64,000 nt of DNA from Ruditapes philippinarum (GCF_026571515.1 NW_026859066.1:62001-126000), one strand, 5' to 3'; numbered from the stretch's first letter, positions 1,251-28,200 are shown. Numbers and translations: made by a program. The notes: generated by a model from the sequence alone, not told the origin.

Positions 1251-2141
1251 GACGGCTTAACGGCATGCCCCTCTAACCTTGTTTTATGTTATGTTTTTTC
1301 TTTAAAGCTGCATGCTTGAATGAAGGTGTATGTTGGAGGATAATAAATAATTTATGCTCATTTGAGAGCATCGAATAAGAGCATAAATTTATTTATTTAC
1401 GGTGCATACACCGTGTCTTTCCACATATGGTAATTCCTCGTGTTTTTAATGGTTATAGTTTTGGCGGTAATTATGCACGATTTTACGTGTAAGTTGATAA
1501 AATATAGTCATTCGAGGCATTACGTTCACGCCGTCCATTTGTGAAATTTCTTTAAATATAATTTTCATATATTACGAAATATCATGAATAAATTTATGTA
1601 TTTAACATTGCCTTAAACAGATTTTTGATATCTTGTTTTATCTATTTCAGATTCTCAGTCTTCGTTTGAACATGGATGTAAAAATTTTAAAAAAAAGGTG
1701 ATTGAAGCAGCCGCTTGTCTAGAGCTTTGGAGCTTCCTACCTCCCCCTCCCAAGACGGAGTAGGGTTGGGTAGCCCGCTCGCAGCATTTCTGACTTTGGC
1801 TTTTTCCAATTATTTTATATTTGATTAATTCTACCTGCGATTGATTAAAAATAGTATTTCTTAGAAATCGAATTTCATTAGGTTTGGTTGGTTGGATCGG
1901 AGAGCAGAGCACGAAAATTTTAGAAGTACACTTGCAGTTTTTCTTCAAGTATTGATCAATGGAGTTGTTTCTTTTGTTTCCTGTAAATCTTTTGTCAAAT
2001 AAACGGGACGGCTTAACGGCATGCCCTCTAACCTTGTTTTATGTTATGTTTTTCTTTAAAGCTGCATGCTTGAATGAAGGTGTATGTTGGAGGATAATAA
2101 ATAATTTATGCTCCTTTGAGAGCATCGAATAAGAGAATAAA
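1251..2141 (+). repeat. Dispersed ~137-bp direct duplication (1251-1387 and 2007-2141)
   Basis: GACGGCTTAACGGCATGCCC...GAGAGCATCGAATAAGAG occurs twice, nearly identical. Copy 1 continues into a hairpin (AATAAATAATTTATGCTC...GAGCATAAATTTATTTATT). Confidence 0.85.
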
Positions 2142-2403
2142 AGGAACTAATTCGCTATATGCTTACAAGGAACTCCGGATATAAGGATATACAGCATTCC
2201 AGTGAAAAAAAAGAAAAACAACTGACTTCAAAAATAATAATGTCTTTAATTAATCTGTGAGTTATATAAAACATCCATTAAACCTCTCCTGTGTAAAATC
2301 AGCTGTTTTTGTTTACATTCTCTCTGCAGGTTAACACTGCATGCTATTTATAGTTCAGGGTTTATAACCGACAGTTTTACATCACTGATTAGTCAGGAAA
2401 AGA

Positions 2404-2462
2404 GTCAACTCGGCCCTATACCAACTCGGCACGGGTCAACTCGGCACGGGTCAACTCGGCCC
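2404..2462 (+). repeat. Short tandem array of CAACTCGGC (4 copies, ~15-bp period), probably a subterminal repeat of a DNA transposon
   Basis: gtCAACTCGGCcctatacCAACTCGGCacgggtCAACTCGGCacgggtCAACTCGGCcc is read directly; the transposon origin is inference. Confidence 0.6.
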
Positions 2463-2912
2463 ACTTTACAAAAATATATAGGCCTATATCGTATTGACTT
2501 TGCTTTGCATGTTGTTAAGGTAAATGAATAATAAGAAATATTTTATTATTATTATATAATTATACACTGTACCTCTGCTGAAATAAAGTATATTTAGAAA
2601 AAAAAGTTATTTATTTGTCTTGCAGATTATTAGATAAAATTAATATAGACACAGGCACGATTATCGAACCTGGGAAGAAAAAATATGAACAGATTGATAA
2701 AATAACTTCATATTTTTACTTCCCAGGTCCGATACTTGTGCCTGTGAATATAGATATAATAAAAATGTGTTTCCTTAGATGCATTTTGTTTGTAAAGTAA
2801 TGTTGCCCCTTTAAGCAGATAATACTTCATGCCTTGAAAATGATTTTTAGATATCTTTTCTCATTGCATGAAGGGGGACCAGGAACCAAAAACTCTTTAA
2901 GTTAAATATTAA

Positions 2913-3247
2913 AGCAGCACGCCTCCAGATTCATGTTAATTTTCATAAAAATTTTGGAATTGTATTTAAAAGTAAAATATTGTGAGGTGAACAAGTAAAG
3001 CAATTTACATATTACAATCGGCACTTACAATCCAAGGAAACTACCAAAAAGTGCAAAAACAACCTTTACTGCAAAAGTAACGCAGTAGAAATCAAATATA
3101 TGATAAAATACTGCAAAAGCAGTTTTAAACAGCCTATAGCATGTAAATATCCTTTGGATCTTGAATGTTTTCACCTTTTTTTGAAATTTTAGTATACCAT
3201 ATTTTTCTAAATATTGATTTTTTTGGCTCATCTGGAGGCGTGCAGCT
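2913..3247. mobile_element. Non-autonomous TIR element (MITE), Kolobok-like
   Basis: 18-bp TIRs AGCAGCACGCCTCCAGAT / ATCTGGAGGCGTGCAGCT (17/18 match). TTAA on both sides (2909-2912, 3248-3251). AG..CT termini with a TTAA TSD are typical of Kolobok. Confidence 0.8.
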
Positions 3248-3444
3248 TTAATATACAATGTTTAATTGAACTTTTTATGTAATTGAACTAATTATTCAAA
3301 ATAACTTTATAGTTTTAAATGGAGTAATGATAATTGCATGGTTTAGACCATTAAGTGGGACAATGTAAGATGTAGCAAGTAAACAGTCATTCATTAACAT
3401 TTACAAATTTGGTCTTAAACAGAATATTATCATATAAATGTATC

Positions 3445-3866
3445 TACCTAACAGGGCAGAGATCACAACAGTCAGTGTCTTCAGGCATATGGCCAGAGAT
3501 GAGCTAACTGTCATCTTTATGATTTTTTTGTTAATTCATCCACTTCCTTGCAGATGTACTTTTTCCCGTTGGGATACGTTTTTATTTTGAATGTATCTTT
3601 GGTCATTGAATACATGTTTTCATTTAGTCTTCTGCAAAAGTAGAGGCGGATGTTCATTTGAACCCGATTCAGTAATCCTGTCTGAGTATTTGGAGAAGAC
3701 ACTGTGATACAATTTCACGAGATCACTGTCTTCAATTTTAGGATAATGGTCGACAGACCCTTTTCCAGATCTTTTAATTTCTGACTGTGCTGCCTTGTAC
3801 GCTTCATTAGCAACTGCGAATTCAGGGCTACTTATTATGTCAAAAGGTTTACTGTGTGGTGGTAAT
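3445..3866 (-). pseudogene. Crypton-type tyrosine recombinase (DUF3504-like) fragment
   Basis: Frameshifted ORFs 3620-3943 and 3517-3702 join as PPHSKPFDIISSPEFAVANEAYKAAQSEIKRSGKGSVDHYPKIEDSDLVKLY...GLLNRVQMNIRLYFCRRLNENMYSMTKDTF...DELTK(NH)...GHMPE...LCPV. This matches my recollection of the Crypton/ZMYM-KCTD1 DUF3504 pattern (FDII..EF..AN; LYFCRRG.EN; DELTKNH; CPV). Confidence 0.75.
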
Positions 3867-4395
3867 ATGATAATATGGTGATATGCCTTCTTCATTTCAG
3901 CTACTATGAGCAAACATTTTTTGAAGATGCTACCACAAGACATCTCCTGAAGGGTTTCACAGCAGATTCAGCTCGTGGCGTATCACCTCTGAGTGAATCC
4001 GATAAAAATAAGCTTCTGTCGTCAGTGAAGAAAGTTTCTGAGCCACTGTTTGATATTATCAACGAGATTGATGGTAACCCAACACTGCTACCATTGTATC
4101 GTATAGTTTTGTACAGCATTGCCTTTCCATCTCCAGTAATGTATGTTCTTTTGTTCGCCCATGTAACCCAGTAGAATCCCTGGTAAAAGCTATTGTTTCA
4201 GGGATTAACATCAGGGAAGAACCTTTGATGTGGAAAACTGTTCATAATTTTTTACCCGTATTATTTGAGGTTTTCGAAAATCAAAATGTTACTCCAAATA
4301 TGCAGCTACTGGTTAACCAACTGTGGAATATTGCAGTGTCACCATTTATATATGCAAAAGAGGATCATCAAAAATCAACCTTGACCTACAGTCAG

Positions 4396-4614
4396 TGTAG
4401 TATGTTTACCATACTGTTATCTTGAAACAGACTATAGCTAGTCTATACATGTAACCTGGCTGGAATTATCCGTCAGTCGTTGACCAGCTACACTTGTAGT
4501 AAGATCGCTTGATCATATCTTTATATTACTAGTCTTGTAAATAAACTGTATATATATGTATATCGGACTTTGTTATTATACTTGACTTTATTATATAGTT
4601 ACAACGATACAACA
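4396..4614 (+). repeat. 5' LTR of the Gypsy element
   Basis: TGTAGTATG...GATACAACA; no differences from 8913-9131 on manual comparison. Confidence 0.97.
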
Positions 4615-4625
4615 TGGTGTCAGAA
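4615..4625 (+). promoter_or_regulatory. Primer-binding site (tRNA-Leu type)
   Basis: TGGTGTCAGAA directly follows the LTR and is complementary to the ...TTCTGACACCA 3' end of tRNA-Leu(CAA). Confidence 0.8.
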
Positions 4626-4691
4626 ATTTTGTGGATTTAATAACTACTGTATTATTTAACAACGTGTATTTAAAGTGGATATTTAATAGAC

Positions 4692-6083
4692 ATGGACATG
4701 TCTGGAATTACACCGCCCAGAATGGACTGGGATAGTTCGAATCTGCCTGAAACATGGGAAAGATTCCACAGGCATGTAGAATTAATTTTCAACGGACCGT
4801 TGAAAGGAAAAGAAGAAGAAGAAAAAATTGCGTATCTCCTAATATGGGTAGATGAGAAAGGGAGAGACATCCAACAAGCTTGGAACTTATCAGCAGACGA
4901 CAAAAAGAAATTAAACATCCAGTATGAAAAATTCAAAGAACACGTACAACCAACGCTTAATCCTGTATTTGCCAGGTATCGTTTCAATAATGAAACACAA
5001 GGATCCGACTCGATTGACAAATTCGTAACACGCCTAAGGCTCCGTGCTAAAGACTGCAGATACGGCGGCATGGAAGACGAGTTAATTCGTGACCGCATCG
5101 TTTTTGGCACGAACAATTCAAGAATTCGTGAGAAATTAATAAATGAGGGAGAAAAACTAACTCTAACAAAAGCCGTTCAAATTTCTCAGAATTTCGAATA
5201 CTGTCAACAGCAAATGGCGACAATGAGCATCGGTGACAGGCAATCACAATATCACACCGGTAATGTAGACGCTATACGGAGAAGACGCCCCGAACAGCCT
5301 ACACACCAACGGAGAGAATACGCACCTCTTCCTGTGAAGCAATGTGGAAATTGTGGACAAAAACATGATTTGAGAGACAGAACTGTTTGTCCCGCATATG
5401 GAAAAACTTGCTTAAAGTGTAAAAAATTGAATCATTTCAAGAAAACGTGTCGCGCTAAAACTAGAGTGCATGACATTGAACAAAGTTATTTTAATGGTTT
5501 AAGTGCTGTGGGACCATGTGATACTCATTTTGAGGAGAGATCACAATACTTCATTGATACGGTAAGCGCTTCATTTTCACCACACAAAACTCCAGACCGT
5601 GCTTTTGTTTCCCTCCAAATCGGCCCAGAAAAGCTGCGCTTAACATTCAAAATTGATACCGGAAGCGCATTAAACATAATCTCGCGCCAAATCTATAATC
5701 AGCTCAGACTGAATTTCCCACTTGAACCCCCGGACAGTAAACTTACTTCATATTCAGGGGATCTCATTAAAGTTCAGGGAAAGGTCACGTTGCAGTGCAC
5801 CTATAGAGAAACTAAAATCAATACAACTTTCTATGTAGTAGACACTTCCGCCCCATCTCTTATAGGTTTAAAGTCAAGCCTCGACCTAGGTTTATTAAAC
5901 CTTACCTACTCAGTAGATAAATCGCCAGTACATAATATTGAGCTCATGACCAAACAAATAGTTATGTCTGACTATGGGGACTTATTCAAAGGTATTGGTA
6001 AACTTCCCGGTAAATGTAAATTACATGTAAAAGAAACTGCGGTTCCTACAGGTAACCCCCTCGCAAAGTACCAGAGGCACTGA
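4692..6083 (+). CDS. gag: Gag + aspartic protease (N-terminal part of Gag-Pol)
   Basis: IRDRIVFG motif, two CCHC knuckles (CGNCGQKH..C, CLKCKKLNHFKKTC), protease FKIDTGS. One extra C at the C5 run near 6056-6060 would join it in frame to pol (NPPRKVP). Confidence 0.9.
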   Translation: MDMSGITPPRMDWDSSNLPETWERFHRHVELIFNGPLKGKEEEEKIAYLLIWVDEKGRDIQQAWNLSADDKKKLNIQYEKFKEHVQPTLNPVFARYRFNNETQGSDSIDKFVTRLRLRAKDCRYGGMEDELIRDRIVFGTNNSRIREKLINEGEKLTLTKAVQISQNFEYCQQQMATMSIGDRQSQYHTGNVDAIRRRRPEQPTHQRREYAPLPVKQCGNCGQKHDLRDRTVCPAYGKTCLKCKKLNHFKKTCRAKTRVHDIEQSYFNGLSAVGPCDTHFEERSQYFIDTVSASFSPHKTPDRAFVSLQIGPEKLRLTFKIDTGSALNIISRQIYNQLRLNFPLEPPDSKLTSYSGDLIKVQGKVTLQCTYRETKINTTFYVVDTSAPSLIGLKSSLDLGLLNLTYSVDKSPVHNIELMTKQIVMSDYGDLFKGIGKLPGKCKLHVKETAVPTGNPLAKYQRH

Positions 6084-6112
6084 AAAACAGGCTTAAACAA
6101 GAACTTTCACGT

Positions 6113-8671
6113 ATGGAAAGTGATAAAATAATTGTCAAGGTTACAGAACCCACAGACTGGGTAAATTCTATCGTGGTTGTTGAAAAACCAAAAACTGGCC
6201 AACTTAGAATATGTATAGATCCGAAAGCGTTAAATGACGCAATCTGCAGGCCCCATTATCCGATGCCTACACTGGAAGATGTGACGGCTAATCTCACAGG
6301 TGCGTCACACTTCAGTATACTTGACATCACTCATGCATATTGGAGTGTAGAATTAGAGAAAGAATCGTCAATGTTGACAACTTTCTCGACGCCATTTGGC
6401 AGATATCGCTACTTAAGGCTGCCATTTGGCATATCTTCATCTGGCGACATTTTTCAACAAAAGGTATACGAAATATTTCAAGGTCTGCCAGGCGTTCACG
6501 CTATTGTTGACGACATACTTATTTGTGGTCGCACAAAAGAAGAGCATAACGCAAACTTGCGTAACACCCTTGATCGCGCACGGGAGGTAGGAATTAGGTT
6601 TAACCCTGATAAATGCATCATAGGTGTTCCTGAAGTTCAATTTTTCGGACACATTATCTCAACCCAAGGCTTAAAGCCCGACCCAAGCAAAATCGAAGCC
6701 ATCACGAGGCTTGAAATCCCAAACACACGTGCTAAGCTTGAAACGTTTCTAGGGATGGTCAATTATATGGCAAAATTCGCGCCAAACTTGGCTGAGGTCA
6801 CTTCCCCTCTGCGTAGCCTCATGCAAAAGGATGTTGAGTTCACATGGGAAAATTCCCACACTCAAGCATTTCAGGAGGTCAAAAATATCATTACGAATGC
6901 CCCAGTTCTTGGTTACTTCGACCCAGACAAACAACTTGTCCTTGAGTGCGACTCGAGCCAGAATGGAACTGGTTGTTGTCTCATGCAAGGAGGCAGACCA
7001 ATTGCATACGCATCAAAAAGTTTCACTAATACTGAAAAAATGTATGCGCAAATTGAGAAAGAAATGTTAGCCATTGTTTTTGGCTGTAAGCGATTCCATC
7101 AATTTACATATGGAAGACCCATAATTGTTAAAAGCGATCATAAACCGATCGAGTCAATTATGAAAAAACCCCTTTCGGCGGCCCCTCCTAGACTTCAGAG
7201 AATGCTGCTGCAGTTACAAAAGTACAAAGTAACTGTAGAGCATGTTAGCGGTAAGAATATACCGGTCAGCGATTTTTTATCGCGACATTCACTACCTGAA
7301 ACAATGCCTACATTGATTGAAGGTCTCGATCTGCATGTACATTCAATTACGAAACAGTTGTTCGTTACTGATAGACGTTTAGATATCATTAGGCAAGCTA
7401 TTACGCAAGACAAATCCATGCAGATATTGAAACAAACTATACTAGCAGGCTGGCCTGAAATGAGGTCACAGTGCATCCCAGAAATAACCGAATTCTGGAA
7501 TCACCGGGACGAATTATCAGTGGAAGATTCCTTGATATTTCGTGGTCAAAAGGTCATAATACCACATAACCTTCGCCAGGAAATGCTGACGCAGGTTCAC
7601 ACAGGTCACTTAGGCGTTACCAAAACTATTGAACGCGCGAAAGATAACATGTTTTGGCCAGGAATGGCAAAACAAATCACAGATTATGTTTTAAAATGTC
7701 CTATCTGCTTAAAACATAGAGATTCAAATGCGAAAGAGCCGTTGCTCCCGCATGAATTTCCAAGCCGACCCTTTGAAAAAATAGGGACTGATATTTTCCA
7801 GTTTGATGGAAAGCAATATCTTGTCACAATCGATTATTACAGTCGATTTTTTGAAATAGACTTATTACCTGATACAAGGTCAGGCACAGTTATCCAAAAA
7901 CTGAGAGTACATATGTCGCGTTATGGTATATGCGATATATTAATCAGTGACAATGGACCTCAATTTTCCTCGCAAGAATTTGAAGATTTCACGCGCGAGT
8001 GGAAATTTGAGCATAAAACATCTTCTCCATATTTTCCAAGATCAAATGGTATGGCAGAGAAAGCTGTTTCAATTGCTAAAAGGTTACTTACTAAAGCAAA
8101 AGAAAGTGGTCACAACCCGTATACAGCTTTGCTCGAATACAGAAATACCCCCCTCGACTGTGGTTTTACACCAGCGCAGTTACTTATGGGTCGTAGAACT
8201 AAGTCAATTCTCCCAATCACACCCAAACTGTTACAACCTAAAACCATATCTTCTTCCCTCGTCATAAAAAATAACGATAGGTCAAAGTTTACGCAAAAGA
8301 AAAATCACGACAAAAACGCCAAGCCCCTATGCCCCCTTTATGTAAATGACTCTGTTAGAATACGTTCAGGAAAAATTTGGGAACCAGCCAAAATCATCAA
8401 TAAACATGATGAAAGGTCATATTCCGTTGTTACACAAGATGGAACTGTATATCGTCGTAACAGGCAACATCTTTTGAAAACAGAGGAAAATTTCTCACAC
8501 TTTGACCCCATGCAACTCAATATTTTTGCTGATCCTGTTATAAGTAAAGAGCAAACATGTGTAAACAATCAAGATCAGATTAACCCCAATACTGAAGGCC
8601 CTTATATAACACGGTCAGGGAGAGTGGTGAAAAGCAATCAGCGCTATTCAAGTAGTCAGTGGGTGAAATAA
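6113..8671 (+). CDS. pol: Pol: reverse transcriptase, RNase H, integrase
   Basis: RT (LRICID, LPFG, IVDDIL), RNase H (CDSSQNG, YAQIEKE, SDHKP), integrase HHCC and D,D35E (GTD, SDNGPQF, NGMAEKAV). Confidence 0.95.
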   Translation: MESDKIIVKVTEPTDWVNSIVVVEKPKTGQLRICIDPKALNDAICRPHYPMPTLEDVTANLTGASHFSILDITHAYWSVELEKESSMLTTFSTPFGRYRYLRLPFGISSSGDIFQQKVYEIFQGLPGVHAIVDDILICGRTKEEHNANLRNTLDRAREVGIRFNPDKCIIGVPEVQFFGHIISTQGLKPDPSKIEAITRLEIPNTRAKLETFLGMVNYMAKFAPNLAEVTSPLRSLMQKDVEFTWENSHTQAFQEVKNIITNAPVLGYFDPDKQLVLECDSSQNGTGCCLMQGGRPIAYASKSFTNTEKMYAQIEKEMLAIVFGCKRFHQFTYGRPIIVKSDHKPIESIMKKPLSAAPPRLQRMLLQLQKYKVTVEHVSGKNIPVSDFLSRHSLPETMPTLIEGLDLHVHSITKQLFVTDRRLDIIRQAITQDKSMQILKQTILAGWPEMRSQCIPEITEFWNHRDELSVEDSLIFRGQKVIIPHNLRQEMLTQVHTGHLGVTKTIERAKDNMFWPGMAKQITDYVLKCPICLKHRDSNAKEPLLPHEFPSRPFEKIGTDIFQFDGKQYLVTIDYYSRFFEIDLLPDTRSGTVIQKLRVHMSRYGICDILISDNGPQFSSQEFEDFTREWKFEHKTSSPYFPRSNGMAEKAVSIAKRLLTKAKESGHNPYTALLEYRNTPLDCGFTPAQLLMGRRTKSILPITPKLLQPKTISSSLVIKNNDRSKFTQKKNHDKNAKPLCPLYVNDSVRIRSGKIWEPAKIINKHDERSYSVVTQDGTVYRRNRQHLLKTEENFSHFDPMQLNIFADPVISKEQTCVNNQDQINPNTEGPYITRSGRVVKSNQRYSSSQWVK

Positions 8672-8900
8672 ACATCATAAACATATCATTTTACCTTTCA
8701 CACCACTTGTTGTACTCTAATCAAAACAAATTATTATTTTGATATGTACTATAATTTTTTATAGATTTTATTCATTTCTGAACATACAATGTTTCATCTA
8801 TATTTAATTTTCTGAATGAAAAAGTGCTAGTTGTTTTACACCTTATTACAATTATGAATTGATTTCTGATAATAAAAGAATATTATTTTTTTTAATACTT

Positions 8901-8912
8901 AAAGAAGGGAGA
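8901..8912 (+). promoter_or_regulatory. Polypurine tract
   Basis: AAAGAAGGGAGA immediately precedes the 3' LTR. Confidence 0.9.
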
Positions 8913-9131
8913 TGTAGTATGTTTACCATACTGTTATCTTGAAACAGACTATAGCTAGTCTATACATGTAACCTGGCTGGAATTATCCGTCAGTCGTTGA
9001 CCAGCTACACTTGTAGTAAGATCGCTTGATCATATCTTTATATTACTAGTCTTGTAAATAAACTGTATATATATGTATATCGGACTTTGTTATTATACTT
9101 GACTTTATTATATAGTTACAACGATACAACA
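8913..9131 (+). repeat. 3' LTR of the Gypsy element
   Basis: Identical to 4396-4614 and followed by the TSD GTCAG. Confidence 0.97.
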
Positions 9132-12100
9132 GTCAGGATGATGAATTATCATTTTTTCCATGTTTGCCGAAGTACAGGTCCAGGGGTCGGTTCCAAAAAG
9201 ATGCATCGCAAGTGAAGAACAAGGTACATTGCACCAAGAAGTATGCTGGACATCCTAGCCTTTTACCAGGGGTCTTCACTATCTTCTGTCCTCATGGTGA
9301 GTAATCTATATATATAGTTACCTTGTTATTGTTGTTGGTTTAAATGCTTTTGATGTTAAAATTCAAGACTGAAATATATATAGTATAATAAGTACTTTAA
9401 ATAGTCACCCACAGACACTAAATCAAGAAACTACCACCCTTCTATACTGATACATCTTTGTTGATTTGATTTATACTAGATTTTGGGATGAACTGGTATT
9501 TGTCTGAATATCTTCACTAATACAGTATCATTGATGGTGTCTTGTTTCTAGTATTCTTTAAATAATATACTTGGCTCATTGTTTGTATGGGACAACAGTC
9601 TGTTCAAGTCCCATTCATCACTGTTACATGTAATTTTCACATAATGACAGTGCTCTGCTTTTAACCATTTGCAGAGGAAAACTGTGCTTTCTTACTTCTT
9701 CAGGTATATACTATGGTTTTCAAGTAATGGCTTCAAATGAGTCTCCAAATGTACCATTTACTATTCTGAGGACTAGATTCAAACGTGGTGAGTGCAGATA
9801 TTATATACATACTTTTTCTAAGATACAGTTACTGTATCAAATGACCCTATGTCATCAACAACAATTAAAGAATGAGAATTGACTTTTTTGTCCCCTGTTT
9901 GTCTCTGCATGTGTCAGTAACAAGCTGACTGGAGACTGAAGCTGAAACTATGTCAGTTTGTAAGTTGTCTATAACGTAAAAATGGATATATCTTATAATG
10001 GAAAGCTCATTACATAAGAAATATATAACTATATAACCTTATAAAGCATAATTTTAGAATAACTGCCAAAATTGTTTTTTACAAAAAAAAGTGTCTCAGA
10101 AGCAAAAGTGATAAAGTATTTGGTACAATCTGAAACATCATAAATCGATATATATGGCATTAAGGGGATAACATTTTCCAAGAAACATATAGATTTTACC
10201 ACTAATCTGATAATAAGAATTAGATATGTCAGGGATCTATGCATAATGACAATCTTCAATTGTATAGAAACAAAAAATAATTCTGTTTCTACACTACTAT
10301 TTAGTGTTGTATTAATGCGGTGGCATAGTTTTTATCACAAATGCAATCTTGTTTTGCCTTATTTTGCAGATAAAAATAAGTTTGCTGCTAAATTCTTTTT
10401 TTAGGTGTATAACCAATGTAAACACCAAAATTATGCCCTATCATACAATTACCAATTATGCAACTTTTGTGTTTTTACTTTTAATTTCAGCCCCAAGACA
10501 AGTTATATATGACAATGCATGCAAGCTGCATGAGTATTGTCTTAACAGAGATCCACTGTTCTTTAAAGAAACAGAATTTTATATTGACCGACTGCATTTG
10601 GATAACCATACTAGTAAGTTAAATGTAATTATATTAAATTGAAGGATAAAAAGGTTAATGTAGCATTTTTCCAGCGTTAACATTTGCAAAAGCTTATATT
10701 GCATTGAAAGCCCAATCATGTGAAAAAGGCCTCTTTCAATGATTTTGAGCTCAGTCGTACATAATATATGGAGAGCTGTCCTACTCGCTCAGGCGTCGGC
10801 GTCCATGTCTGCGTCCAGATTTCAGATTCAAGTTTTGGTGCAGTGAAATATTTTTCACTATTAACTTTTTCATTTCTTAAGGTATCAACTTCAAACTTCA
10901 AATATATGTTCCTTATCATTAACCACATGCTATGTGACAAGGTTCTTAACTCTAGCACAAATATTGCAAGAATTATCTTCTTCATGAACTTTTTTAATTG
11001 AAAAATGTTACTTTTTAATATAATAGCTTCTTTAGTTTTGGAGGTATCCACCTCAAATTTCAAATACATATTTATTATCATCAATTACATCTTATGTGAC
11101 AAGGTTCATAACTCTTGAAGCAATATTTTTAGATTTCTCTCCATTTGAACTATGGATTTTTAAAGAAATATTTTAACTTCTTTACTTTTTAGCTCACCTG
11201 TCACAAAGTGACAGGGTGAGCTTTTGTGATCGCTTTTCGTCCGTCCGTCCGTCGTCCGTCCGTACACTTTTACTTAAAATGACATCTCCTCATAAACCAC
11301 TAAGCCAATTTCATCCAAACTTCACAGGAATGTTCCTTTGGTGGTCACCTTTAAAAATTGTTCAAAGAATTTAATTCCATGCAGAACTCTGGTTGCCATG
11401 GCAACCGAAAAAAAAACTTAAAAAATTTTCTTTTAAAAAACCCTAAGAGCTAGAGCTTAGATATTTGACATGAAACATCTTCTAATAAGTGTCTACCAAG
11501 TTTTTTCAAATAAAAGCCCTGGGATCAAAATTGGCCCCGCCCCAGGGGGTCTTTGATTTTACCTATATGCATATAGTAAAAACTTAAAAAATCTTCTTTT
11601 AAAGAACCCAAAGAGCTAGAGCTAAGATATTTAGCATGAAACATCTTCTAATGAGTGTCTACCAAGTTTGTTCAAATAAAAGCCCTGGGGTTAAAATTGT
11701 CCCCGCCCCAGGGGTCTTTGATTTTCCCTATATGCATATAGTAAAAACTTAAAAAATCTTCTTTTAAAGAACTCAAAGAGCTAGAGCTAAGTGGAAATTT
11801 GAGCATAAAACATCTTCTCCATATTTTCCAAGATCAAATGGTATGGCAGAGAAAGCTGTTTCAATTGCTAAAAGGTTACTTACTAAAGCAAAAGAAAGTG
11901 GTCACAACCCGTATACAGCTTTGCTCGAATACAGAAATACCCCCCTCGACTGTGGACTGAATCACTCCCAAACTGTTACAACCTAAAACCATATCTTCTT
12001 CCCTCGTCATAAAAAATAATGATAGGTCAAAGATTACGCAAAAGAAAAATCACGACAAAAACGCCAAGCCCCTATGCCCCCTTTATGTAAATGACTCCGT

Positions 12101-12658
12101 GAGAATTCGTTCAGGAAAAATTTGGGAACCAGCCAAAATCATCAATAAACATGATGAAAGGTCATATTCCGTTGTTACGCAAGATGGAACTGTTTATCGT
12201 CGTAACAGGCAACATCTTTTGAAAACAGAGGAAAATTTCTCACACTTTGACCCAATGCAACTCAATATTTTTGCTGATCCTGATATAAGTAAAGAGCAAA
12301 CATGTGTAAACAATCAAGATCAGATTAACCGCAATACTGAAGGCCCTTATATAACACGGTCAGGGAGAGTGGTGAAAAGCAATCAGCGCTATTCAAGTAG
12401 TCAGTGGGTGAAATAAACATCATAAACATATGATTTTACCTTTCACACCACTTGTTGTACTCTTATCAAAACAAATTATAATTTTGATATGTACTATAAT
12501 TTTTTATAGATTTTATTCATTTCTGAACATACAATGTTTCATCTATATTTAATTTTCTGAATGAAAAAGTGCTACTTGTTTTACACCTTATTGCAATTAT
12601 GAATTGATTTCTGATAATAAAAGAATATTATTTTTTTTTAATACTTAAAGAAGGGAGA

Positions 12659-12879
12659 TGTAGTATGTTTACCATACTGTTATCTTGAAACAGACTATAG
12701 CTAGTCTATACATGTAACCTGGCTGGAATTATCCGTCAGTCGTTGACCAGCTACACTTGTAGTAAGATCGCTTGATCATATCTTTATATTACTAGTCTTG
12801 TAAATAAACTGTATATATATGTATATCGGACTTTGTTATTATATACTTGACTTTATTATATAGTTACAACGATACAACA
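12659..12879 (+). repeat. Third copy of the Gypsy LTR, created by the duplication
   Basis: Same LTR with +2 bp (AT), preceded by the PPT and followed by GTCAG. Confidence 0.95.
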
Positions 12880-14937
12880 GTCAGGATGATGAATTATCAT
12901 TTTTTCCATGTTTGCCGAAGTACAGGTCCAGGGGTCGGTTCCAAAAAGATGCATCGCAAGTGAAGAACAAGGTACATTGCACCAAGAAGTATGCTGGACA
13001 TCCTAGCCTTTTACCAGGGGTCTTCACTATCTTCTGTCCTCATGGTGAGTAATCTATATATATAGTTACCTTGTTATTGTTGTTGGTTTAAATGCTTTTG
13101 ATGTTAAAATTCAAGACTGAAATATATATAGTATAATAAGTACTTTAAATAGTCACCCACAGACACTAAATCAAGAAACTACCACCCTTCTATACTGATA
13201 CATCTTTGTTGATTTGATTTATACTAGATTTTGGGATGAACTGGTATTTGTCTGAATATCTTCACTAATACAGTATCATTGATGGTGTCTTGTTTCTAGT
13301 ATTCTTTAAATAATATACTTGGCTCATTGTTTGTATGGGACAACAGTCTGTTCAAGTCCCATTCATCACTGTTACATGTAATTTTCACATAATGACAGTG
13401 CTCTGCTTTTAACCATTTGCAGAGGAAAACTGTGCTTTCTTACTTCTTCAGGTATATACTATGGTTTTCAAGTAATGGCTTCAAATGAGTCTCCAAATGT
13501 ACCATTTACTATTCTGAGGACTAGATTCAAACGTGGTGAGTGCAGATATTATATACATACTTTTTCTAAGATACAGTTACTGTATCAAATGACCCTATGT
13601 CATCAACAACAATTAAAGAATGAGAATTGACTTTTTTTGTCCCCTGTTTGTCTCTGCATGTGTCAGTAACAAGCTGACTGGAGACTGAAGCTGAAACTAT
13701 GTCAGTTTGTAAGTTGTCTATAACGTAAAAATGGATATATCTTATAATGGAAAGCTCATTACATAAGAAATATATAACTATATAACCTTATAAAGCATAA
13801 TTTTAGAATAACTGCCAAAATTGTTTTTTACAAAAAAAAGTGTCTCAGAAGCAAAAGTGATAAAGTATTTGGTACAATCTGAAACATCATAAATCGATAT
13901 ATATGGCATTAAGGGGATAAACATTTTCCAAGAAACATATAGATTTTACCACTAATCTGATAATAAGAATTAGATATGTCAGGGATCTATGCATAATGAC
14001 AATCTTCAATTGTATAGAAACAAAAAATAATTCTGTTTCTACACTACTATTTAGTGTTGTATTAATGCGGTGGCATAGTTTTTATCACAAATGCAATCTT
14101 GTTTTGCCTTATTTTGCAGATAAAAATAAGTTTGCTGCTAAATTCTTTTTTAGGTGTATAACCAATGTAAACACCAAAATTATGCCCTATCATACAATTA
14201 CCAATTATGCAACTTTTGTGTTTTTACTTTTAATTTCAGCCCCAAGACAAGTTATATATGACAATGCATGCAAGCTGCATGAGTATTGTCTTAACAGAGA
14301 TCCACTGTTCTTTAAAGAAACAGAATTTTATATTGACCGACTGCATTTGGATAACCATACTAGTAAGTTAAATGTAATTATATTAAATTGAAGGATAAAA
14401 AGGTTAATGTAGCATTTTTCCAGCGTTATCATTTGCAAAAGCTTATATTGCATTGAAAGCCCAATCATGTGAAAAAGGCCTCTTTCAATGATTTTGAGCT
14501 CAGTCGTACATAATATATGGAGAGCTGTCCTACTCGCTCAGGCGTCGGCGTCCATGTCTGCGTCAGATTTCAGATTCAAGTTTTGGTGCAGTGAAATATT
14601 TTTCACTATTAACTTTTTTCATTTCTTAAGGTATCAACTTCAAACTTCAAATATATGTTCCTTATCATTAACCACATGCTATGTGACAAGGTTCTTAACT
14701 CTAGCACAAATATTGCAAGAATTATCTTCTTCATGAACTTTTTTTAATTGAAAAATGTTACTTTTTAATATAATAGCTTCTTTAGTTTTGGAGGTATCCA
14801 CCTCAAATTTCAAATACATATTTATTATCATCAATTACATCTTATGTGACAAGGTTCATAACTCTTGAAGCAATATTTTTAGATTTCTCTCCATTTGAAC
14901 TATGGATTTTTTAAAGAAATATTTTAACTTCTTTACT

Positions 14938-17900
14938 TTTTAGCTCACCTGTCACAAAGTGACAGGGTGAGCTTTTGTGATCGCTTTTCGTCCGTCCGTC
15001 CGTCGTCCGTCCGTACACTTTTACTTAAAATGACATCTCCTCATAAACCACTAAGCCAATTTCATCCAAACTTCACAGGAATGTTCCTTGGTGGTCACCT
15101 TTAAAAAATTGTTCAAAGAATTTAATTCCATGCAGAACTCTGGTTGCCATGGCAACCGAAAAAAAAACTTAAAAAATTTTCTTTTAAAAAACCCTAAGAG
15201 CTAGAGCTTAGATATTTGACATGAAACATCTTCTAATAAGTGTCTACCAAGTTTTTTCAAATAAAAGCCCTGGGATCAAAATTGGCCCCGCCCCAGGGGG
15301 TCTTTGATTTTACCTATATGCATATAGTAAAAACTTAAAAAATCTTCTTTTAAAGAACCCAAAGAGCTAGAGCTAAGATATTTAGCATGAAACATCTTCT
15401 AATGAGTGTCTACCAAGTTTGTTCAAATAAAAGCCCTGGGGTTAAAATTGTCCCCGCCCCAGGGGTCTTTGATTTTCCCTATATGCATATAGTAAAAACT
15501 TAAAAAATCTTCTTTTAAAGAACTCAAAGAGCTAGAGCTAAGATCTTTAGCATGAAACATGTTCTAATGGGTGCTACAAAGTTTGTTCAAATAAAAGCCC
15601 TGGGGTCAAAATTGGCCCCGCCCCGGGGGTCGTTGATTTTCCTTATATGTGTATAGCAAAAACTTAAAAATCTTCTTTGAAAAAACCAAATAGCTAGAGC
15701 TTAGATATATTAGCATGAAACGTCTTCTAGTGAGTGTCTACCAAGTTTGTTCAAATAAAAGCCCTGGGGTCAAAATTGGCCCCGCCCCAGGAGCTCATTG
15801 ATTTTCCCTATATGCATATAGTAAAAACTTAAAAAATCTTCTTTTAAAGAACTCAAAGAGCTAGAGCTAAGATCTTTAGCATGAAACATGCTCTAATGGG
15901 TGTCTACAAAGTTTGTTCAAATAAAAGCCCTGGGGTCAAAATTGGTCCCGCCACGGGGGTCATTGATTTTCCTTATATGTGTTTAGACAAAAACTTAAAA
16001 AATCTACTTTGAAACAAACCAAATAGCTAGAGCTAAGATATTAAGCATGAAACATCTTCTAGTGAGTGTCTACCAAGTTTGTTCAAATAAAAGCCCTGGG
16101 GTCAAAATTGGCCCCGCCCCAGGGGGTCATTGATTTTCCCTATATGCATATAGTAAAAACTTAAAAAAGTCTTTTTTTAAAGAACTCAAAGAGCTAGAGC
16201 TAAGATCTTAAGCATGAAACATGTTCAAATGGGTGTCTACAAAGTTTGTTCAAATAAAAGCCCTGGGGTCAAAATTGGCCCCGCCACGGGGGTCATTGAT
16301 TTTCCTTATATGTGTATAGCAAAAACTTTAAAAATCTTCTTTGAAAAAAAAAACAAATAGCTAGAGCTTAGATATTAAGCATGAAACATCTTCTAGTGAG
16401 TGTCTACCAAGTTTGTTCAAAAAAAAGCCCTGGGGTCAAAATTGGCCCGCCCCAGGGGGTCTTTGATTTTACCTATATGCATATAGTAAAAACTTAAAAA
16501 ATCTTCTTTTAAAGAACTCAAAGAGCTAGAGCTAAGATATGTAGCATGAAACATCTTCTAACGGGTGTCTACAAAGTTTGTTCAAATAAAAGCCCTGGGG
16601 TCAAAATTGGCCCACCGCCACGGGGGTCATTGATTTTCCTTATATGTGTATAGCAAAAACTTAAAAAATCTTCTTTGAAAAAAAAAACAAATAGCTAGAG
16701 CTAAGATATTAAGCATGAAACATCTTCTAGTGAGTGTCTACCAAGTTAGTTTAAATAAAAGCCCAAGGGTCAAAATTGGCCCCGCCCCAGGGGGTCATTG
16801 ATTTTCCCTATATGCATATAGTAAAAACTTAAAAAATCTTCTTTTAAAGAACTCAAAGAGCTAGAGCTAAGATCTTTAGCATGAAACATGTTCAAATGGG
16901 TGTCTACAAAGTTTGTTCAAATAAAAGCCCTGGGGTCAAAATTGGCCCCGCCACGGGGGTCATTGATTTTCCTAATATGTGTATAGCAAAAATTTAAAAA
17001 ATCTTCTTTGAAAAAAACCAAATAGCTAGAGCTTAGATATTAAGCATGAAACATCTGCTAGTGAATGTCTACCAAGTTTGTTCAAATAAAAGCCCTGGGG
17101 TCAAAATTGGCCCGCCCGAGGGGGTCTTTGATTTTCCCTATATGCATATAGTAAAAACTTAAAAAATCTTCTTTTAAAGAACCCAAAGAGCTAGAGCTTA
17201 GATATTTAGCATGAAACATCTTCTAATGAGTGTCTACCAAGTTTGTTCAAATAAAAGCCCAAGGGTCAAAATTGGCCCCGCCCCAGGGGGTCATTGATTT
17301 TCCCTATATGCATATAGTTAAAACTTAAAAAATCTTCTTTTAAAGAACTCAAAGAGCTTTAGCATGAAACATGTTCTAATGGGTGTCTACCAAGTTTGTT
17401 CAAATAAAAGCCCTGGGGTCAAAATTGGCCCCGCCCCGGGGGTCATTGATTTTCCTTATATGTGTATAGCAAAAACTTAAAAATCTTCTTTGAAAAAACC
17501 CAAATAGCTGGAGTTTAGATATTAAGCATGAAACATCTTTAAGTGAGTGTCTATAAAGTTTGTTCAAATAAAAGCCCTGGGGTCAAAATTGGACCCGCCC
17601 CGGGTGTCATTGATTTTCCTTATATGTGTATAGCAAAAACTTAAAAATCTTCTTTGAAAAAACCCAAATAGCTAGAGTTTAGATATTAAGCATGAAACAT
17701 CTTCTAGTAAGTGTCTACAAAGTTTGTTCAAATGAAAGCCCTGGGGTCAAAACTGGCCCGCCCCAGGGGTGTCATTGATTAAAAAACACAATGAGCTAGA
17801 GCTTAGATGTTTAGCATGAAACATCCTCTTATTGGTGTCTACCAAGTTTGTTCAAATAAAAGCCCTTGGATTAAAATTGGCCCTGCCGGGGGGGGGGGGC

Positions 17901-18088
17901 AGGTTGGAGGTGGGGGGTAGATCGTTGTTTTTCATTATATGTGTGTAGTAAAAACTTAACATCGTGAAACATCTTCTAATGGGTGTCCTCCAAGTTTGTT
18001 CAAATAAAAGTCCTGGGGTTTAAACTGGCCCCGCTGCGGGTGCCTTTATACAGGTGAGCGACCTCAGGGCCATCATGGCCCTCTTGTT
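14938..18088 (+). mobile_element. Helentron-like non-autonomous element carrying a ~165-bp satellite array (partial duplicate at 11187-11790)
   Basis: 5' TTTTAGCTCACCTG + hairpin (TGTCAC aaa GTGACA) + (GTCC)n; about 17 tandem monomers (AAAAGCCCTGGGGTCAAAATTGGCCCCGCCC...); 3' CAGGTGAGCG (subterminal inverted repeat) + GGGCCATCATGGCCC hairpin + TCTTGTT. Confidence 0.85.
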
Positions 18089-19597
18089 AAGGTATCTACT
18101 TCAAATATATAATTTTTTTTACTCTTAACACACAGTATGTTGGTAACAAGGTTTCAAATCTACGCGTGACTCATTTCCAGAATATCCCCCTTGAACTTGG
18201 GAATTAATGTAAACAAATGTTATTTTTTTTGCTATAACTCAATACATGATTATACATAATTGATTTTCTTTCATAGATTTGCCTTCCTTACTGCGTCCAG
18301 TATTTCATTAGAGGAGCTTCGCTGTCTCCTGTGACAGCTCTTCTTTAAATGGACTTCAAGTTGACCAGAAAGACTTTGACCTTCACTCATAAATGTCCTT
18401 GACCTCAAATTATTGAAATGTTCACGTTTTTGTTGTAACTGACTATAATTTTAATATAAATGAAAGAATTGAATGCATTTTATAACAGAACATTCTTTAG
18501 GATAAAACCTTTATGTCTTTTATGACCTTGAAGGTTAAATTATTGATAATTGAAATTTAATTTTTGTAAATTGTTACAATTTTGTTATTAATGTACAGAT
18601 TTTATTTAAAATTATATCAAACAAGATTTGCAACCCAACAAACATCTTGAATATTTTAAATATGACATTAATCCTAAATTAACCCTTACTGTCAAGGTCA
18701 AATAAATGAATGCTTTTAAAATAAGTTAAAATAAAGCGTCGCCCCTGCCCGGCAATTTAAATAATGCTAATGAAATTCACTTACGCTAGATCCTGTCTCT
18801 GCTCGATTGTCACTGCATCTTAATTATCGTAATTCCTTATTTTACAGGTTGCAGCTATGGATATAACTTGTCTATGTATCCAGAACTTGAGAAGCTCAAC
18901 AGCCAGTGCAATGAACAAGCTAATACTGGACTTAAAAGAATAAAAGACCAACTTTCCTATATGACAGCCTGAAACTTTATGACCCATTGTGCATTTTATT
19001 TAAGACACCAAAACATTTGCAAATTGAAATCTATTTAATGCTTATTCAGGTATGGTTAATCCATTGCCTATAAATGAGTCATTTTATACAAAGATAAAGA
19101 CCAGTGAGAAGAACTGCAGTGTCTAAGAACCAAAGCCATATTCCTACTTTTGGAGATATACTTATCTTCCTTGATATCATTTTATGATGCTTGTTACACT
19201 TTTGCTTGTACAATTTTTTCTAGCTCGAATTCTCTCATTTATGACTTTGGATCTCATTGGATAGAACTGCAATGCTAACAAACATTAACACAGCCTTGTC
19301 TAATTTTGGAGTTATTGCCCTTAGTTCATTTTTACACTTTGACCACCATAGACATGTAAGTCTCAATATCGTATGTGCCTTGTTAATGTATGTCTTGGAG
19401 CCTTTATTTGGAAGTATTTATATTACAGTAGTATTGTTTTATAAGGGATGCCGTTTACTGGATAGTTGCATGCGTATTTGCTCATTTCTCTGTACCAATA
19501 AATATATGCATTGACTACCAAGTGTTGTTGTTGTTGTATAAGTATATATACTATTTTGAAATATCAGTGCCGTCTTCTTGAATGTAAATCTATTAGT

Positions 19598-19657
19598 TTT
19601 TAGCTCGGCTATAGAAGTATATGGAGAGCTGTTCTACTTACCCTGGCGTCGGCGTCA
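19598..19657 (+). mobile_element. Truncated 5' end of the same HINE family as 10743
   Basis: TTTTTAGCTCGGCTATAGAAGTATATGGAGAGCTGTTCTACTTACCCTGGCGTCGGCGTC resembles 10743-10803. Confidence 0.6.
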
Positions 19658-21479
19658 AATTTTAAATAGTTATCGTATCGGTTTCATATTATCCTAAACA
19701 GTTCAAGTTTAGCCAAGGCTTTCCAGAAAAGTAATAGCAGTATCTTTAAGAGCATACTATAGACAGTTCTTTTTAAGAATTTAATTTTACGCTTTATATC
19801 AATGTTACAAAAATGACGAGCAAAAGTAAGTAAATGAAAACAAGGTTAACAAAATGCTTTTATACACGCGCATCTTTCAAAATAAAAGACATTGTTGCAT
19901 CAACTAAATCCTTAGCTATTCAAGGGACATAGTTTTTACATATACATGACTTTTATCTTTGGGTTTAGCGTGTGTGTAAACATACTCAAAATTTCAATTT
20001 AACAGTTATTGAATGATAAAAATGAATATGCACTGACTGAATAGCAAACACGGGTGACCATGATCAGACAGTACGGGTGTGTAAAAGGTAAAATTTCACA
20101 AGAAATACAAACCAAATTATAGTTCAACTATTTTGAAAAGACAAATTGATGTATTCGTTCAGAACAAAAGTCTGGTCTCTTCAGTGACTTTTTACATGAA
20201 GAGACCGTGTGCCAAAAAATATAAATTTTCAGTTTACATTTATACCACTATAATGAAAATTACAAAAAAATACGTAAGAAAAACAAACCAAATTATAGTT
20301 AGAAGAGACCGTTCGCCGAAAAAGTCACAATAAATTTAAGTCAGTATGATAAAAATATGTTAGAAATACAAACAAAAGAAAATTGAAACTGTTATGGCAA
20401 AAGCCAAGTTAATGTTTTTCCTCTTATAATAATTGCAACGATCATATGTTTGAGAGTAAAAATGTCCTTTGTACGTGTTTAATGATGTAAAAATATTACT
20501 CGTTCTAACGTGCTTAAAACCAAAATACTAGTATGTCTGATTGATTAGGTGAAGTACTGATATTATAAAAGTACACACATATATTGTCAAAAAGAAAATC
20601 GACGTTTTCGTTCGTCTGTATGATGTGATTATCAATCGTTTTTCGTCATAAACAATCTTTATGATACGTTTTAAATAGCCACTAAAAGTATTATAAATTA
20701 AATGCAAAAATCTTTGTGACAAGATAAAGGGAAGTATCCTTTGACACGAGCAATATATATTCTGATCCTATTTGTTCATCTGTTTACTGGCCGCGTGTAC
20801 ACATATATATTATTAGTTATAAAAAAATGACAGGTCATATGGTATATGAACGGTTGTTTCGATACATAACCGACAGCTAGACGAATTTATAAAACAGCAA
20901 GCATCTTTTATAAGAAAAAAAGTGATATTCCTTCATAAATTTTTAGCAGGCGTGTATACAATACAATAGAACCCTCACGATAATCATGACTTTTTTTTAT
21001 TTCCTCAGCTGACATTTATGGTGCTTTGAGATTGCTGAACTACAGATTTTACCTTTTCCGGAGTTACCCGATGCAATAATGCTTACTTGTTGTAACCCTT
21101 ATAGCTGTTGTGTCAACAAACAGTCTGTCTTTCAAGCTTAAGCGAGTTTTACGGCCAACATACCTTTCGTAGTCCCTGCCTTCTTTGTGTCTTCAGTATT
21201 CACACCGTAAGATAGTTAGTAGAAGATAAGGTACGGCCCTATTATAATGAATGATACAGATAGTTTTGCGTATTAAACCAGAAACACAAATCCAGGAGTT
21301 TCCAATTACATGACATATCTATCATAACCGAGCAGAACCACACTACTTTGATGGTTTTATCCAATTTCAAATGCACCAACTATTTGAAAAGTGAAGCATT
21401 TTCTGTGATATAGACAGAACGACACATTTGTGTATAGCAAATCAAATACATCTTGATACTTTCCAATATCACTTCTCAT

Positions 21480-24400
21480 TTCATGGGAAAAAAATTTTTT
21501 TACATGTATAAATGATTAAGCTCTAAATTAGCTAAAAAAATTAACACGACCAAAAAAAAAAAAAACGTTTCGTAAAACAAAATTTAAATATTAGCTAAAT
21601 TATAATACGGTTTTCAATGCATAAATTTAAAATAAATTTTAGAGAATCAATCGCTCTTAAAAAACCCTTGATTTATTTTTGTCATTTTTTCTGCCCAACA
21701 TATCTTTTTCTTTTAAAATAAGAGCCTTTTCCCGGGGATTTTTCCCGAATGTTTTTGACACAAAAAAGAAACCCCTTTGTTTTACAGATTATCCCTGGAC
21801 AATTTCAAAGGCAAAAATTTTGATAAAAAGGAAAAGTTTTTCTAATAAATGGACCTTTGCCTACAAAGTTTTTTTGACCCTGTTATGGAGTTATGTACAT
21901 GCCAAAGTTTAAAATGTAAAAATTAACAAAGGGCAAAAACTCCAAAATTATAATTAAGGTTGCATTATCAAAGACACAAGGCTGACGTTTTTCGCAGCTT
22001 TAAAATTCATAAAGAAAGTTTTTTCCACATTAAAAATTTTAAAAATGAAAAAAAACGCAATATTTATAAAATTAAATTTCATTGACACTTGTTTAATTTA
22101 GAAAAACGTCGGTAGGTTAATTACCTAATAAAAATTCTTTGGTTTATTGGTCAGGTAAAACCGTAACTTCACGTTCAAAAATTTCTAGCACAAAATTGGT
22201 GTATTTTTGTTTTTTTTACGAATTTTGAAAAAAGAATTTTTGGCCAATATTGAATCCCCGAATTTATACCTCACGAAATTGCCGTTTGCCCGGAAAAAAA
22301 AGAAAATTATGCCCTCGATTTAAAAAATTGATTTCACAGTTAGAAAGGGCCAGTTAGTTTTTTGAAACTGAAAATTCAAAAACCTTTTATTGAGATTATG
22401 TACCACAAATTTTCATGTTAAAATCTCTTAAAATTTATAGAGTGATGTCTCAGACATGACCTTTCCTAAAAGGGAGATAATTCAATTACAGGGCTAACCA
22501 GTTATGGTTTTTTGCAATGCATTTTCAACCCAATGAGATCTACGTACAACAGTTTTCATGTTGATATTCCTTATAATTTTAGAGTTTACGTTCTGGAAAA
22601 AGTGTAAAAAATGAACAAAAAAGGCAATAACTCCAAAATTAGGCATGGCAGAGTAACGTTTTCTGTGTACTGCACAGCTACCACTGGAATCTATCTACCT
22701 ACAAAGTTTCATGTTGAATATCTCTAATAGTTTAGAGTTATGTCCAGTACAAAATTTTTTCTAAAAGCAGGATAATTCAAAAAACAGGGGCTGAGAAGAG
22801 TTATGATTCTTTTGCACTGCACTTCCACCCGATGAGATCTATCTCACAAAGTTTCATGTTGATAATCTTTTATAATTTTAGAAGTAATGTTCCGGACACA
22901 GTTATAAGTGTAAAAATGAACAAAACTCCAAAATTAGGTAATGGCAGAGTTACAGTTCTTGTGCACTGCACTCCCCTTGATGTGCCTCATTCTAACCACT
23001 GTGTGAAGTTTAAACAAATTATCTCTTAGGGTGTTTAAGTTATGTTTCGGACAAGACAACGGTCGGACAGGACAGACAGACAAGGCGGCGACTATACGCT
23101 CATAAAAATAGTGCATCTCTTCAATTTACAAAAGACCATATTGAAAAAAATCACCCTTTATTTAAAAAATTTAAATAATTTTCCCAACATTTTAAAGTAC
23201 ATTTTTGCCCGATCAAAAGGGGAAATAGTGAGGGGAACAGGAAAAGGGGAAACTCAATTTAACTATGGGATAAATTTTTTAAATTTTTTAAATTTTAAAT
23301 TCTACAAGGACTTTTTTTTAATTTACCCGAGAAAAAAATTTAAAACATTAAAAAGAATTTTCATATCACGGTTTATTTTATAAAAAAATGGGAGAACATT
23401 TTTTTTTCTTGGAAGTTTTTATCTTTCATTTCCAAACGTTTGTCAGTATTTAAAAAAAATATTTGTCAAAACCCCCATTCTAACAGGCCCGTTTTAAAGA
23501 AAAAAATAGTAATTCAGGGAATTTTCCAAAGATTAAAATACATTGCAACATTTAAAAAATTTATTACATAACATAACAGTGTTGCTATGTGAATTGGGGC
23601 CCAATTAAATTTAAAAGGGCTTTTTAAGCAATTTAAATTTGGGTTTTAGTATTTAAACCCAAAAAAATAGCAATGAAAGAATTAAAAATGAATAAAAATC
23701 TTTTTATAAATTAAAGAAAATAATGGTTCTAGACCAAATTTAAATTTTCCATTTTTATACGAGATACTAAACTTTTCAAAAAAAATAGAACTTTTTTTTC
23801 CTTTAGGTATTCAAAATCTGGGTTTCAATATTTTTTTTCAACATTTGGGGAAAACCGCTATTTTTTTATAGGTGTTTGTTTAAAAAAAATAATATTTTCA
23901 AAGATAAAAATTCATTTTTAAAAATACAATGTTTTAAACATGGCACTAATAAAAAAGAACAGGGATTTACGAAATTTATAATAACCATGTCAAACGTATC
24001 AACAACTTCACAAAATGAGTTGAAATAAAATGATAATTACTTTGTGCTTCTTTAGTAGTAACACGGTATGACATAGGAAGATAATGATCCAACAAAGTAA
24101 ACAATATTTCAATTATCACAGTAAATGCACAATAATAAAATAATAATCAGTCACACTAATAACAAAAAAAACAAAACATCTTAAAACAAGCCTATAAAAA
24201 ATAATAATAAAATAATCAAAACTAAATTAAAAAAACAACACTTAACAATACACACACAAAGTTATCTATATTTGAAAAGAATTAAAAGGGTTTGTAAAAC
24301 TACATGTATTTCAAAAAATATTTGTCTTAACATTTTCTACTGTAAAATAAGAATTGAAATTTTCAATCCATCTTTAATATCAATCATTAAGATTCTGAAC

Positions 24401-27400: not shown

Positions 27401-28200
27401 AAACGCTGGACCCAAAGATTTATTCTGGTATCTGAAAGGAAAATTTTGTAAGGGTTTTGTAGTTTAAAACTTTAGAAAACATTTATGGTTTGGAGTTTTT
27501 TTACCAAAAAAATTTCCCACCTGAAAAACTCCCACTAAAATGGTTATTTTTTCATTTTAAATAAATTTAAAAAAACAGTTTCAAAATTTCTTTAATCCGC
27601 AAAAATTTTTTGAACATTTAAAATTTCTTTATATTGTTTCTTAAAATTTCTTGGGTTTTTTGGTTTGGGCCCCCCTTTAAAAGTGCAGGGGTTACATCAG
27701 TTTAAAGGGGGGGTAAGCGCTCTTAAAAAATTTGGGGGCATTCTCCTTTAATTCGTGTCTGTATTTTGGGTTTTAAAAAATGGGCCTGGATGAAGGGGGC
27801 TTTAAAAAAGAAAAAAAGGTTATTTTTTTTTCTTTGATGTTCAAATTTTTTTTTTTAAATTTAAATCCCTATTTTTTATTCATGTTTTAGAAATTTGCAA
27901 AAATCCCCCCCTTTTAAAACCCCTACGGTAAAAAAATCTTTTTTTTAATTTAAAAGGGTCTTTGTGTTTTTTTGTGTTTGTAAAAAAGAAATTTTAAAAA
28001 AAATAAGGAAATGTTTTTGAAAAATTTAAATTTTTCTTTTAAGGTTTTAAGGGGGAAAATTTTTGAACCCTTAAAAATTTTAAAAAAAACCAATTTTCAT
28101 TTGGAAACCCTTTAAAAAAATCAGCTGGTCCTTTTTAAAACCCCCCCGTTATTTTACATTTTGTTTTTTGGTTTTAACTGTCAGTTAATTAAAACCATGT
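21480..28200. other. Low-quality, homopolymer-inflated assembly segment (also 1-1250)
   Basis: Abrupt excess of A/T/G/C runs; recognisable repeats are distorted into homopolymers; ORFs here are F/K/L-rich noise. Confidence 0.75.
21925..23108 (-). mobile_element. Degenerate HINE-like element with AAGGGCAATAACTC-type core repeats
   Basis: Repeated units (GGCAATAACTCCAAAATTAGG..GCACTGCAC..GAGATCTATC..AAAGTTTCATGTTGA) ending in (GACA)n and GGCGGCGACTATA..CATAAAAA. Confidence 0.6.

Follow-up and report, generated by a model that had tools for sequence, protein, structure and literature searches.

Remains of a probable Zisupton-type KDZ transposon, split by a Gypsy retroelement, in the clam Ruditapes philippinarum

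Does the coding sequence that surrounds a retrotransposon in the genome of Ruditapes philippinarum belong to a transposon copy or to a gene of the host? The window studied here, the whole stretch of 64,000 nt on one strand (coordinates count from its first letter), has the base composition of AT-rich animal DNA. An original prediction, made from the sequence alone, had proposed that a spliced KDZ (Kyakuja-Dileera-Zisupton) transposase becomes visible between 3901 and 19038 once the retrotransposon is removed. We consider it quite probable that the window contains the 3' portion of a KDZ transposase gene that has introns, is of the Zisupton (SWIM-CxC4-KDZ) type and is now dead. It is likely what decay has left of one copy of a cut-and-paste DNA transposon, present in low copy number in a venerid clam.

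Exon anatomy and public protein models

All exon pieces lie on the plus strand. The 5' part of the first exon (3901..4395, the region of the helical insert) matches residues 236-412 of P0005, a Mercenaria (hard clam) protein, with 61% identity; the remainder of this exon (9137..9296; joint 4387>9129), which ends in CPH, matches residues 402-455 with 76% identity. Next come an exon with the ESP motif (9704..9787), recognized by its match to P0005, by the motif itself and by its cover in the public sequencing run X17, an exon with the putative second catalytic Asp (YDNAC) and DxxHxxxH (10491..10613; 86% identity to P0005), and the last exon with the predicted catalytic Glu in NSQxxEQ (18848..19038; 89% identity), the last stop being at 19036-19038. 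The last intron contains an array of tandem repeats of about 165 bp (15163..17900).

The exon pieces are not chance matches, because P0005 as tblastn query matched all of them in order with 61-89% identity, and because the window product, with X at the breaks, scored 439.5 bits against a profile built from 30 relatives. This product has 349 residues and is 75% identical to P0005 237-584 (349 columns) and 89% identical to the protein P0002 over 220 columns.

GT donors are present at 9297, 9788 and 10614, and AG acceptors, each after a pyrimidine tract, precede 3901, 9704, 10491 and 18848. The three later introns are in phase 1 and the joined exon length is divisible by three, as had been claimed for three further GT-AG introns. 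At these three intron positions the gene models of other molluscs either end or continue unspliced, which supports the clam splice sites. Each of the motifs on which the earlier claim was built was located in the window exons: C-x-H as CPH/G at 9287-9705, split by an intron, ESP at 9739-9747, YDNAC at 10508-10522, DxxHxxxH from 10586 and NSQxxEQ at 18898-18918.

A protein search with the piece 9137-9295 as query returned three proteins. P0001 is a Ruditapes philippinarum gene model which is identical over this piece, is 100% identical to the window in its second half (165 residues) and includes the tandem duplication described below. P0002, of 252 residues, has neither the retroelement insertion nor the frameshift described below. 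P0003 is a Mercenaria protein, of which P0005 is a longer isoform. The first catalytic Asp had been expected outside the window, and a second public Ruditapes model, P0004, indeed carries it together with the CxC4 part; P0004 is 80% identical to P0005 58-232. It reads into 3901 in a different frame, therefore the gene extends upstream, and from its sequence it is likely broken upstream of the window as well. Full-length forms of the clam protein (130-415 residues) were searched for, and none besides P0001 and P0002 was found.

The Gypsy insertion and insertion-free forms

The element that splits the first exon is a Gypsy-type long terminal repeat (LTR) retrotransposon (4396..9131, plus strand), recognized by its paired LTRs and by matches to reverse transcriptase (RT), RNase H and integrase. 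The LTRs (4396-4614 and 8913-9131) are identical at 219/219 nt, and the element is flanked by the 5-bp target-site duplication GTCAG (left 4391..4395, right 9132..9136, plus strand). It has two frames, 4674-6083 (gag-like, with a weak zinc knuckle match) and 6056-8671 (RT, RNase H, integrase); the paired LTRs, the short target-site duplication and the order RT-RNase H-integrase are those of Ty3/Gypsy elements. Removal of 4396-9136 joins 4395 to 9137 with the reading frame kept, and together with the identical LTRs and the GTCAG flanks this bears out the original account of a gene hidden by an insertion. In size and layout the insert is reminiscent of Steamer-like elements (PMC11046912).

Four of 24 listed public runs (X1, X5, X16, X17) were compared with the window over 2200-10800; X16 and X17 were taken as RNA by guess, no run being listed as RNA on record. 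In X5, X16 and X17 an empty-site joint that skips 4741 nt is present. The retroelement is therefore missing from other copies or alleles. X1 showed no such joint in its listed row. The element itself is young and polymorphic, and much of its length is covered in X16.

In X17 one contig of 1357 nt spans 3899-4387 and 9129-9295. Compared with the window, the first of these pieces lacks 5 nt, as expected without the frameshifting insertion, and the window copy is about 5% divergent from the contig. Cover in X17 is nil at 9375-9661 (an intron bin) and reaches a depth of 6.6 in the bin that follows, a value consistent with only the 84-nt exon being covered. From this cover we infer splicing in X17; the 15 joints displayed in the comparison, to which 120 undisplayed ones have to be added, do not include intron joints. 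In X1 and X5 the letters are mixed and of unequal depth, with window-type letters at low depth, depth being no measure of copy number. Among the best-supported exon variants, 9 of the 12 listed alter a residue, and at these nine the other samples agree with Mercenaria in six cases and the window in none.

Lesions and assembly quality

The first exon contains a frameshifting 5-nt insertion near 4139-4143, which does not lie in a homopolymer. The pattern at 4137-4143 (TA, three bases, TA) resembles an excision footprint of a Tc1/mariner element; a small local duplication fits equally. A premature in-frame TGA at 18970-18972, 21 residues ahead of the last stop, had gone unnoticed before. The window deviates at 4 of 62 covered conserved columns; C457Y (P0005 numbering) is among them, and W519L is another altered conserved site. 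The original prediction had not included these changes.

Also absent from the original prediction is a tandem duplication of about 3.75 kb: 11790..15565 (plus strand) repeats about 7998-11789, i.e. the 3' part of the retroelement, its 3' LTR and three exon segments, with 97.8% identity, so that these segments are present a second time at 12885-13044, 13452-13535 and 14240-14362. In the retroelement part the two copies differ by 17 substitutions, a deletion of 34 nt and one of 13 nt; in the host part, from 8886 on, they differ by one substitution and eleven indels of 1-2 nt, mostly in homopolymer runs. The dominance of indels in the host part, as against substitutions clustered in the retroelement, suggests an artefact of long-read assembly, which we favour, with some reserve, as the origin of the duplication.

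If noisy long-read assembly had also produced the frameshift and the stop, the gene would be intact in the animal save for the retroelement. Besides the homopolymer indels of the duplication, the window stretches 1-1200 and 21.4-28 kb, which appear error-rich, speak for such a reading. It does not account for a 5-nt insertion outside a homopolymer, for many substitutions at conserved sites or for the window-type letters seen in independent runs. Assembly error is thus plausible for the duplication but not for the whole decay, and an otherwise intact gene appears very improbable to us.

Family assignment

P0001 scores 42.1 bits against the Pfam KDZ model (PF18758), above the curated cut-off of 26.6. 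Searched against Pfam at E<=0.01, the 25 relatives examined match KDZ in 9 and CxC4 in 13 cases. The CxC4 part lies outside the window; P0004 and P0005 score 20.2 and 23.0 bits for it, both under the cut-off of 26.9, which 6 of the 25 relatives reach. A SWIM-like CxC..CxH pattern was found by regular expression in eight of nine long relatives (about 850-950 residues); Pfam gave no SWIM match in the relatives and no domain beyond CxC4 and KDZ. The atlas clusters that look most like P0005 are of the KDZ/CxC kind (best 0.96).

Among 45 aligned relatives, the rows with a residue at the respective position have Asp at D208 in 41/41 and at D490 in 38/38 cases, and Glu at E546 in 31/38. Conservation and the motif names suggest catalytic roles for these three residues. 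The window holds the second D and the E as well as CxH and DxxHxxxH; the first D is in P0004.

The AlphaFold model of P0005 (mean predicted local distance difference test score, pLDDT, 87.5) matched transposases or integrases at all ranks from 1 to 32 in a fold search with VIA-align. Its best match was the IS256-family transposase ISCth4 (Z 9.0, root mean square deviation 4.5, 264 aligned). ISCth4 (PDB 6xg8, 6xgw), of the IS256/Mutator type, was also rank 1 in Foldseek (E 0.49); it differs from P0005, with 10% identity, and the likeness depends on the predicted model. A sequence-profile search of the PDB returned two chance-level rows and no solved relative. With P0001 above the Pfam KDZ cut-off and DDE transposases and integrases as the top fold matches of the P0005 model, the original assignment to a spliced animal KDZ element with an RNase H-like fold stands.

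What found no support is the proposal that it represents a type different from Zisupton. SWIM, CxC4 and KDZ together are the canonical Zisupton structure (PMC11343200), and multi-exon Zisupton elements, with best matches in lancelets and mussels, were already published (PMC9297572). Since the relatives show just this layout, with a SWIM-like pattern, CxC4 and KDZ, the claim of a separate type is unsupported, and the clam copy would belong to the known Zisupton type; this comparison with Zisupton was made by published description. KDZ domains have also been counted in oysters (PMC10546077).

The same domain set as in the relatives is found in KDZx1 of Cryptococcus deneoformans, which was caught inserting with an 8-bp target duplication and without terminal inverted repeats (TIRs) (PMC11343200). 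KDZx1 also has a second open reading frame. Unlike KDZx1, the clam copy resides in an animal host, is dead and has three or more phase-1 introns. Zisupton elements of fish and Pristionchus (PMC9297572, PMC12062965) likewise have a multi-exon KDZ transposase, a patchy distribution and horizontal transfer. By their descriptions, however, the fish and nematode proteins reach about 1400 residues, the fish one with CxC7, whereas the relatives of the clam copy have about 850-950 and CxC4.

Mobility of the relatives

The original prediction had named a single-copy, syntenic gene as the sign of a domesticated host gene; at the level of the family, the relatives proved to be multi-copy and dispersed. 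Solemya velum has 9 KDZ gene ids on at least six different scaffolds of chromosome size, each over 130 Mb. Patella has two loci with an identical protein and Saccostrea two that are 99.8% alike; the Clytia loci are duplicated too, and Mytilus coruscus has three separate KDZ lineages. In both KDZ trees, which are quick searches, the rows of Mytilus, Crassostrea and Branchiostoma spread over several clades, in conflict with the species tree. The family comprises 7514 representatives at 50% identity and, judged from these sequences, is mobile.

A sister lineage (P0190, P0194, P0195, P0199) is 90-98.5% identical between multi-copy Solemya velum and three Mytilus species; its identity to the window product is only 51%. 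Between Solemya P0190 and Mytilus trossulus P0199, 790/802 residues agree (98.5%). Solemya and Mytilus belong to different bivalve subclasses, which split in the early Palaeozoic. This suggests recent horizontal transfer between the two lineages, with contamination as an alternative. Literature searches found this lineage undescribed, Iyer 2014, Bohne 2012 and Repbase, which may hold the family, being outside their reach; searches on Zisupton in Ruditapes or bivalves, on horizontal transfer in molluscs and on Solemya transposons gave nothing on this KDZ family. The main text of a bivalve transposon survey has no Zisupton or KDZ and calls horizontal transfer of bivalve DNA elements poorly explored (PMC10294476).

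A metagenome scan returned 80 loci, none of which matches the window as DNA; the contig of P0002 is not among them. Five of these loci have a common 3' end. L015 and L021, the only ones of the five whose upstream sequence reaches far enough, are similar to the fungal relative P0046 and show 9-bp flanking direct repeats (chance about 0.014 and 0.03) and no TIR. In the lack of TIRs these distant relatives resemble KDZx1; their repeats are of 9 bp, not 8 bp. L015:140-4594 and L021:4903-9586 look like complete fungal-type KDZ elements of 4.4-4.7 kb. Most members of the Zisupton type have TIRs. Published target duplications are of 8 bp for Zisupton and Dileera and of 7 bp for Kyakuja (PMC12730594). 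Repeats after CCG in 19 loci gave many chance matches; only L015 and L021, with the 3' end fixed beforehand by alignment, were retained. L005:50-7897 is a distant KDZ relative inside a 32-bp inverted repeat, for which a target duplication was searched and not found. In viral contigs, 27 pattern matches included no relative.

Transposon copy or host gene

Judged from the relatives, the spliced mRNA of an intact copy would encode a protein of roughly 850-900 residues in which SWIM and CxC4 clusters bind zinc and D208, D490 and E546 (P0005 numbering) form the D-D-E core of an RNase H-like fold. Such a transposase is predicted to cut the element out and to reinsert it with a short target duplication. 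The clam copy would first have accumulated the frameshift, the stop and the changes at conserved sites; the Gypsy element likely struck last, because its LTRs are still identical.

Several observations weigh against a decayed transposon. Pfam support is uneven: 8 of the 25 relatives have no match at all, P0005, the closest full relative, has no KDZ match, and six single exon pieces gave none at E<=0.1. The Z of 9 for the best fold match is modest, and Foldseek with the P0005 model returned nothing at E<=0.001. No credible inverted repeat was found between 1-3900 and 19039-33000, the terminal motifs of L015 and L005 were not found after 19038, and the 5' end of the clam element lies beyond the window. 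The residue changes, nine derived in the window as against four in P0002, are too few to prove relaxed selection. Finally, the searches returned only one Mercenaria locus, and in the 10-row clade of the window the named rows are all bivalves, as an inherited gene would give.

The last two points lead to the alternative that venerid clams have turned a KDZ transposase into a host gene, of which the window would carry a null allele; HMGXB3 is such a domesticated gene in vertebrates. A spliced-looking, insertion-free contig in X17, intron positions common to the clam copy and other molluscs, and host-like introns rich in repeats would all fit a host gene. Multiple exons are, however, known from Zisupton elements themselves (PMC9297572), the nearest sister lineages are multi-copy, dispersed and nearly identical across distant species, and a copy bearing several independent lesions is still present, X1 and X5 also showing its letters at low depth. 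We therefore regard domestication as unlikely and prefer the decayed transposon copy.

A more far-reaching scenario, which we hold to be possible but doubtful, is that intron-rich CxC4-KDZ transposons form a mollusc lineage which has remained active and passes, introns included, from one bivalve subclass to another, as the 98.5% identity between Solemya and Mytilus might indicate, and that in Manila clams an intact copy continues to be transcribed and spliced. The complete element of the clam may then be a giant unit which includes, at 21-40 kb, a convergent and equally decayed OTU-like gene and is bounded by 9-bp target duplications, with no TIRs.

Other elements in the window

Convergent with the transposase, a decayed multi-exon gene lies at 21085-40004 (minus strand), perhaps as cargo, perhaps as a neighbour without any relation to it. 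Its OTU-like piece (29806-29955) contains a GNC motif and matches OTUD1 weakly (E 0.35); it gave no Pfam match and no significant match. Directly before the first exon, at 3520-3898 (minus strand), a frameshifted coding fragment occupies the intron and is covered in X17. It presumably resembles Crypton/DUF3504 tyrosine recombinases, for which a search gave no significant match.

Further elements are a BEL/Pao LTR retrotransposon (43855-51597) with LTRs of about 1.08 kb that are 97% alike and with broken frames, a remnant of a LINE-like RT (about 33300-36350), a second integrase-bearing LTR element (about 61000-64000, minus strand) truncated by the window end, and inverted arms (54973-58289; about 560 nt, 79% alike) which enclose 2.2 kb and are likely a non-autonomous DNA transposon. 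A 13-bp tandem repeat at 41228-41544 has the palindrome CACGTG in every unit.

Significance

Taken by itself, the locus is nothing unusual: the nested remains of a transposase of a known kind, disabled by mutation and by a retroelement. It is of value as a pointer to the large KDZ family, one sister lineage of which appears to have been active, and transferred horizontally, in recent times. The Solemya/Mytilus lineage is the better lead: its near-identical copies would supply the ends of the element and a testable animal KDZ transposase.

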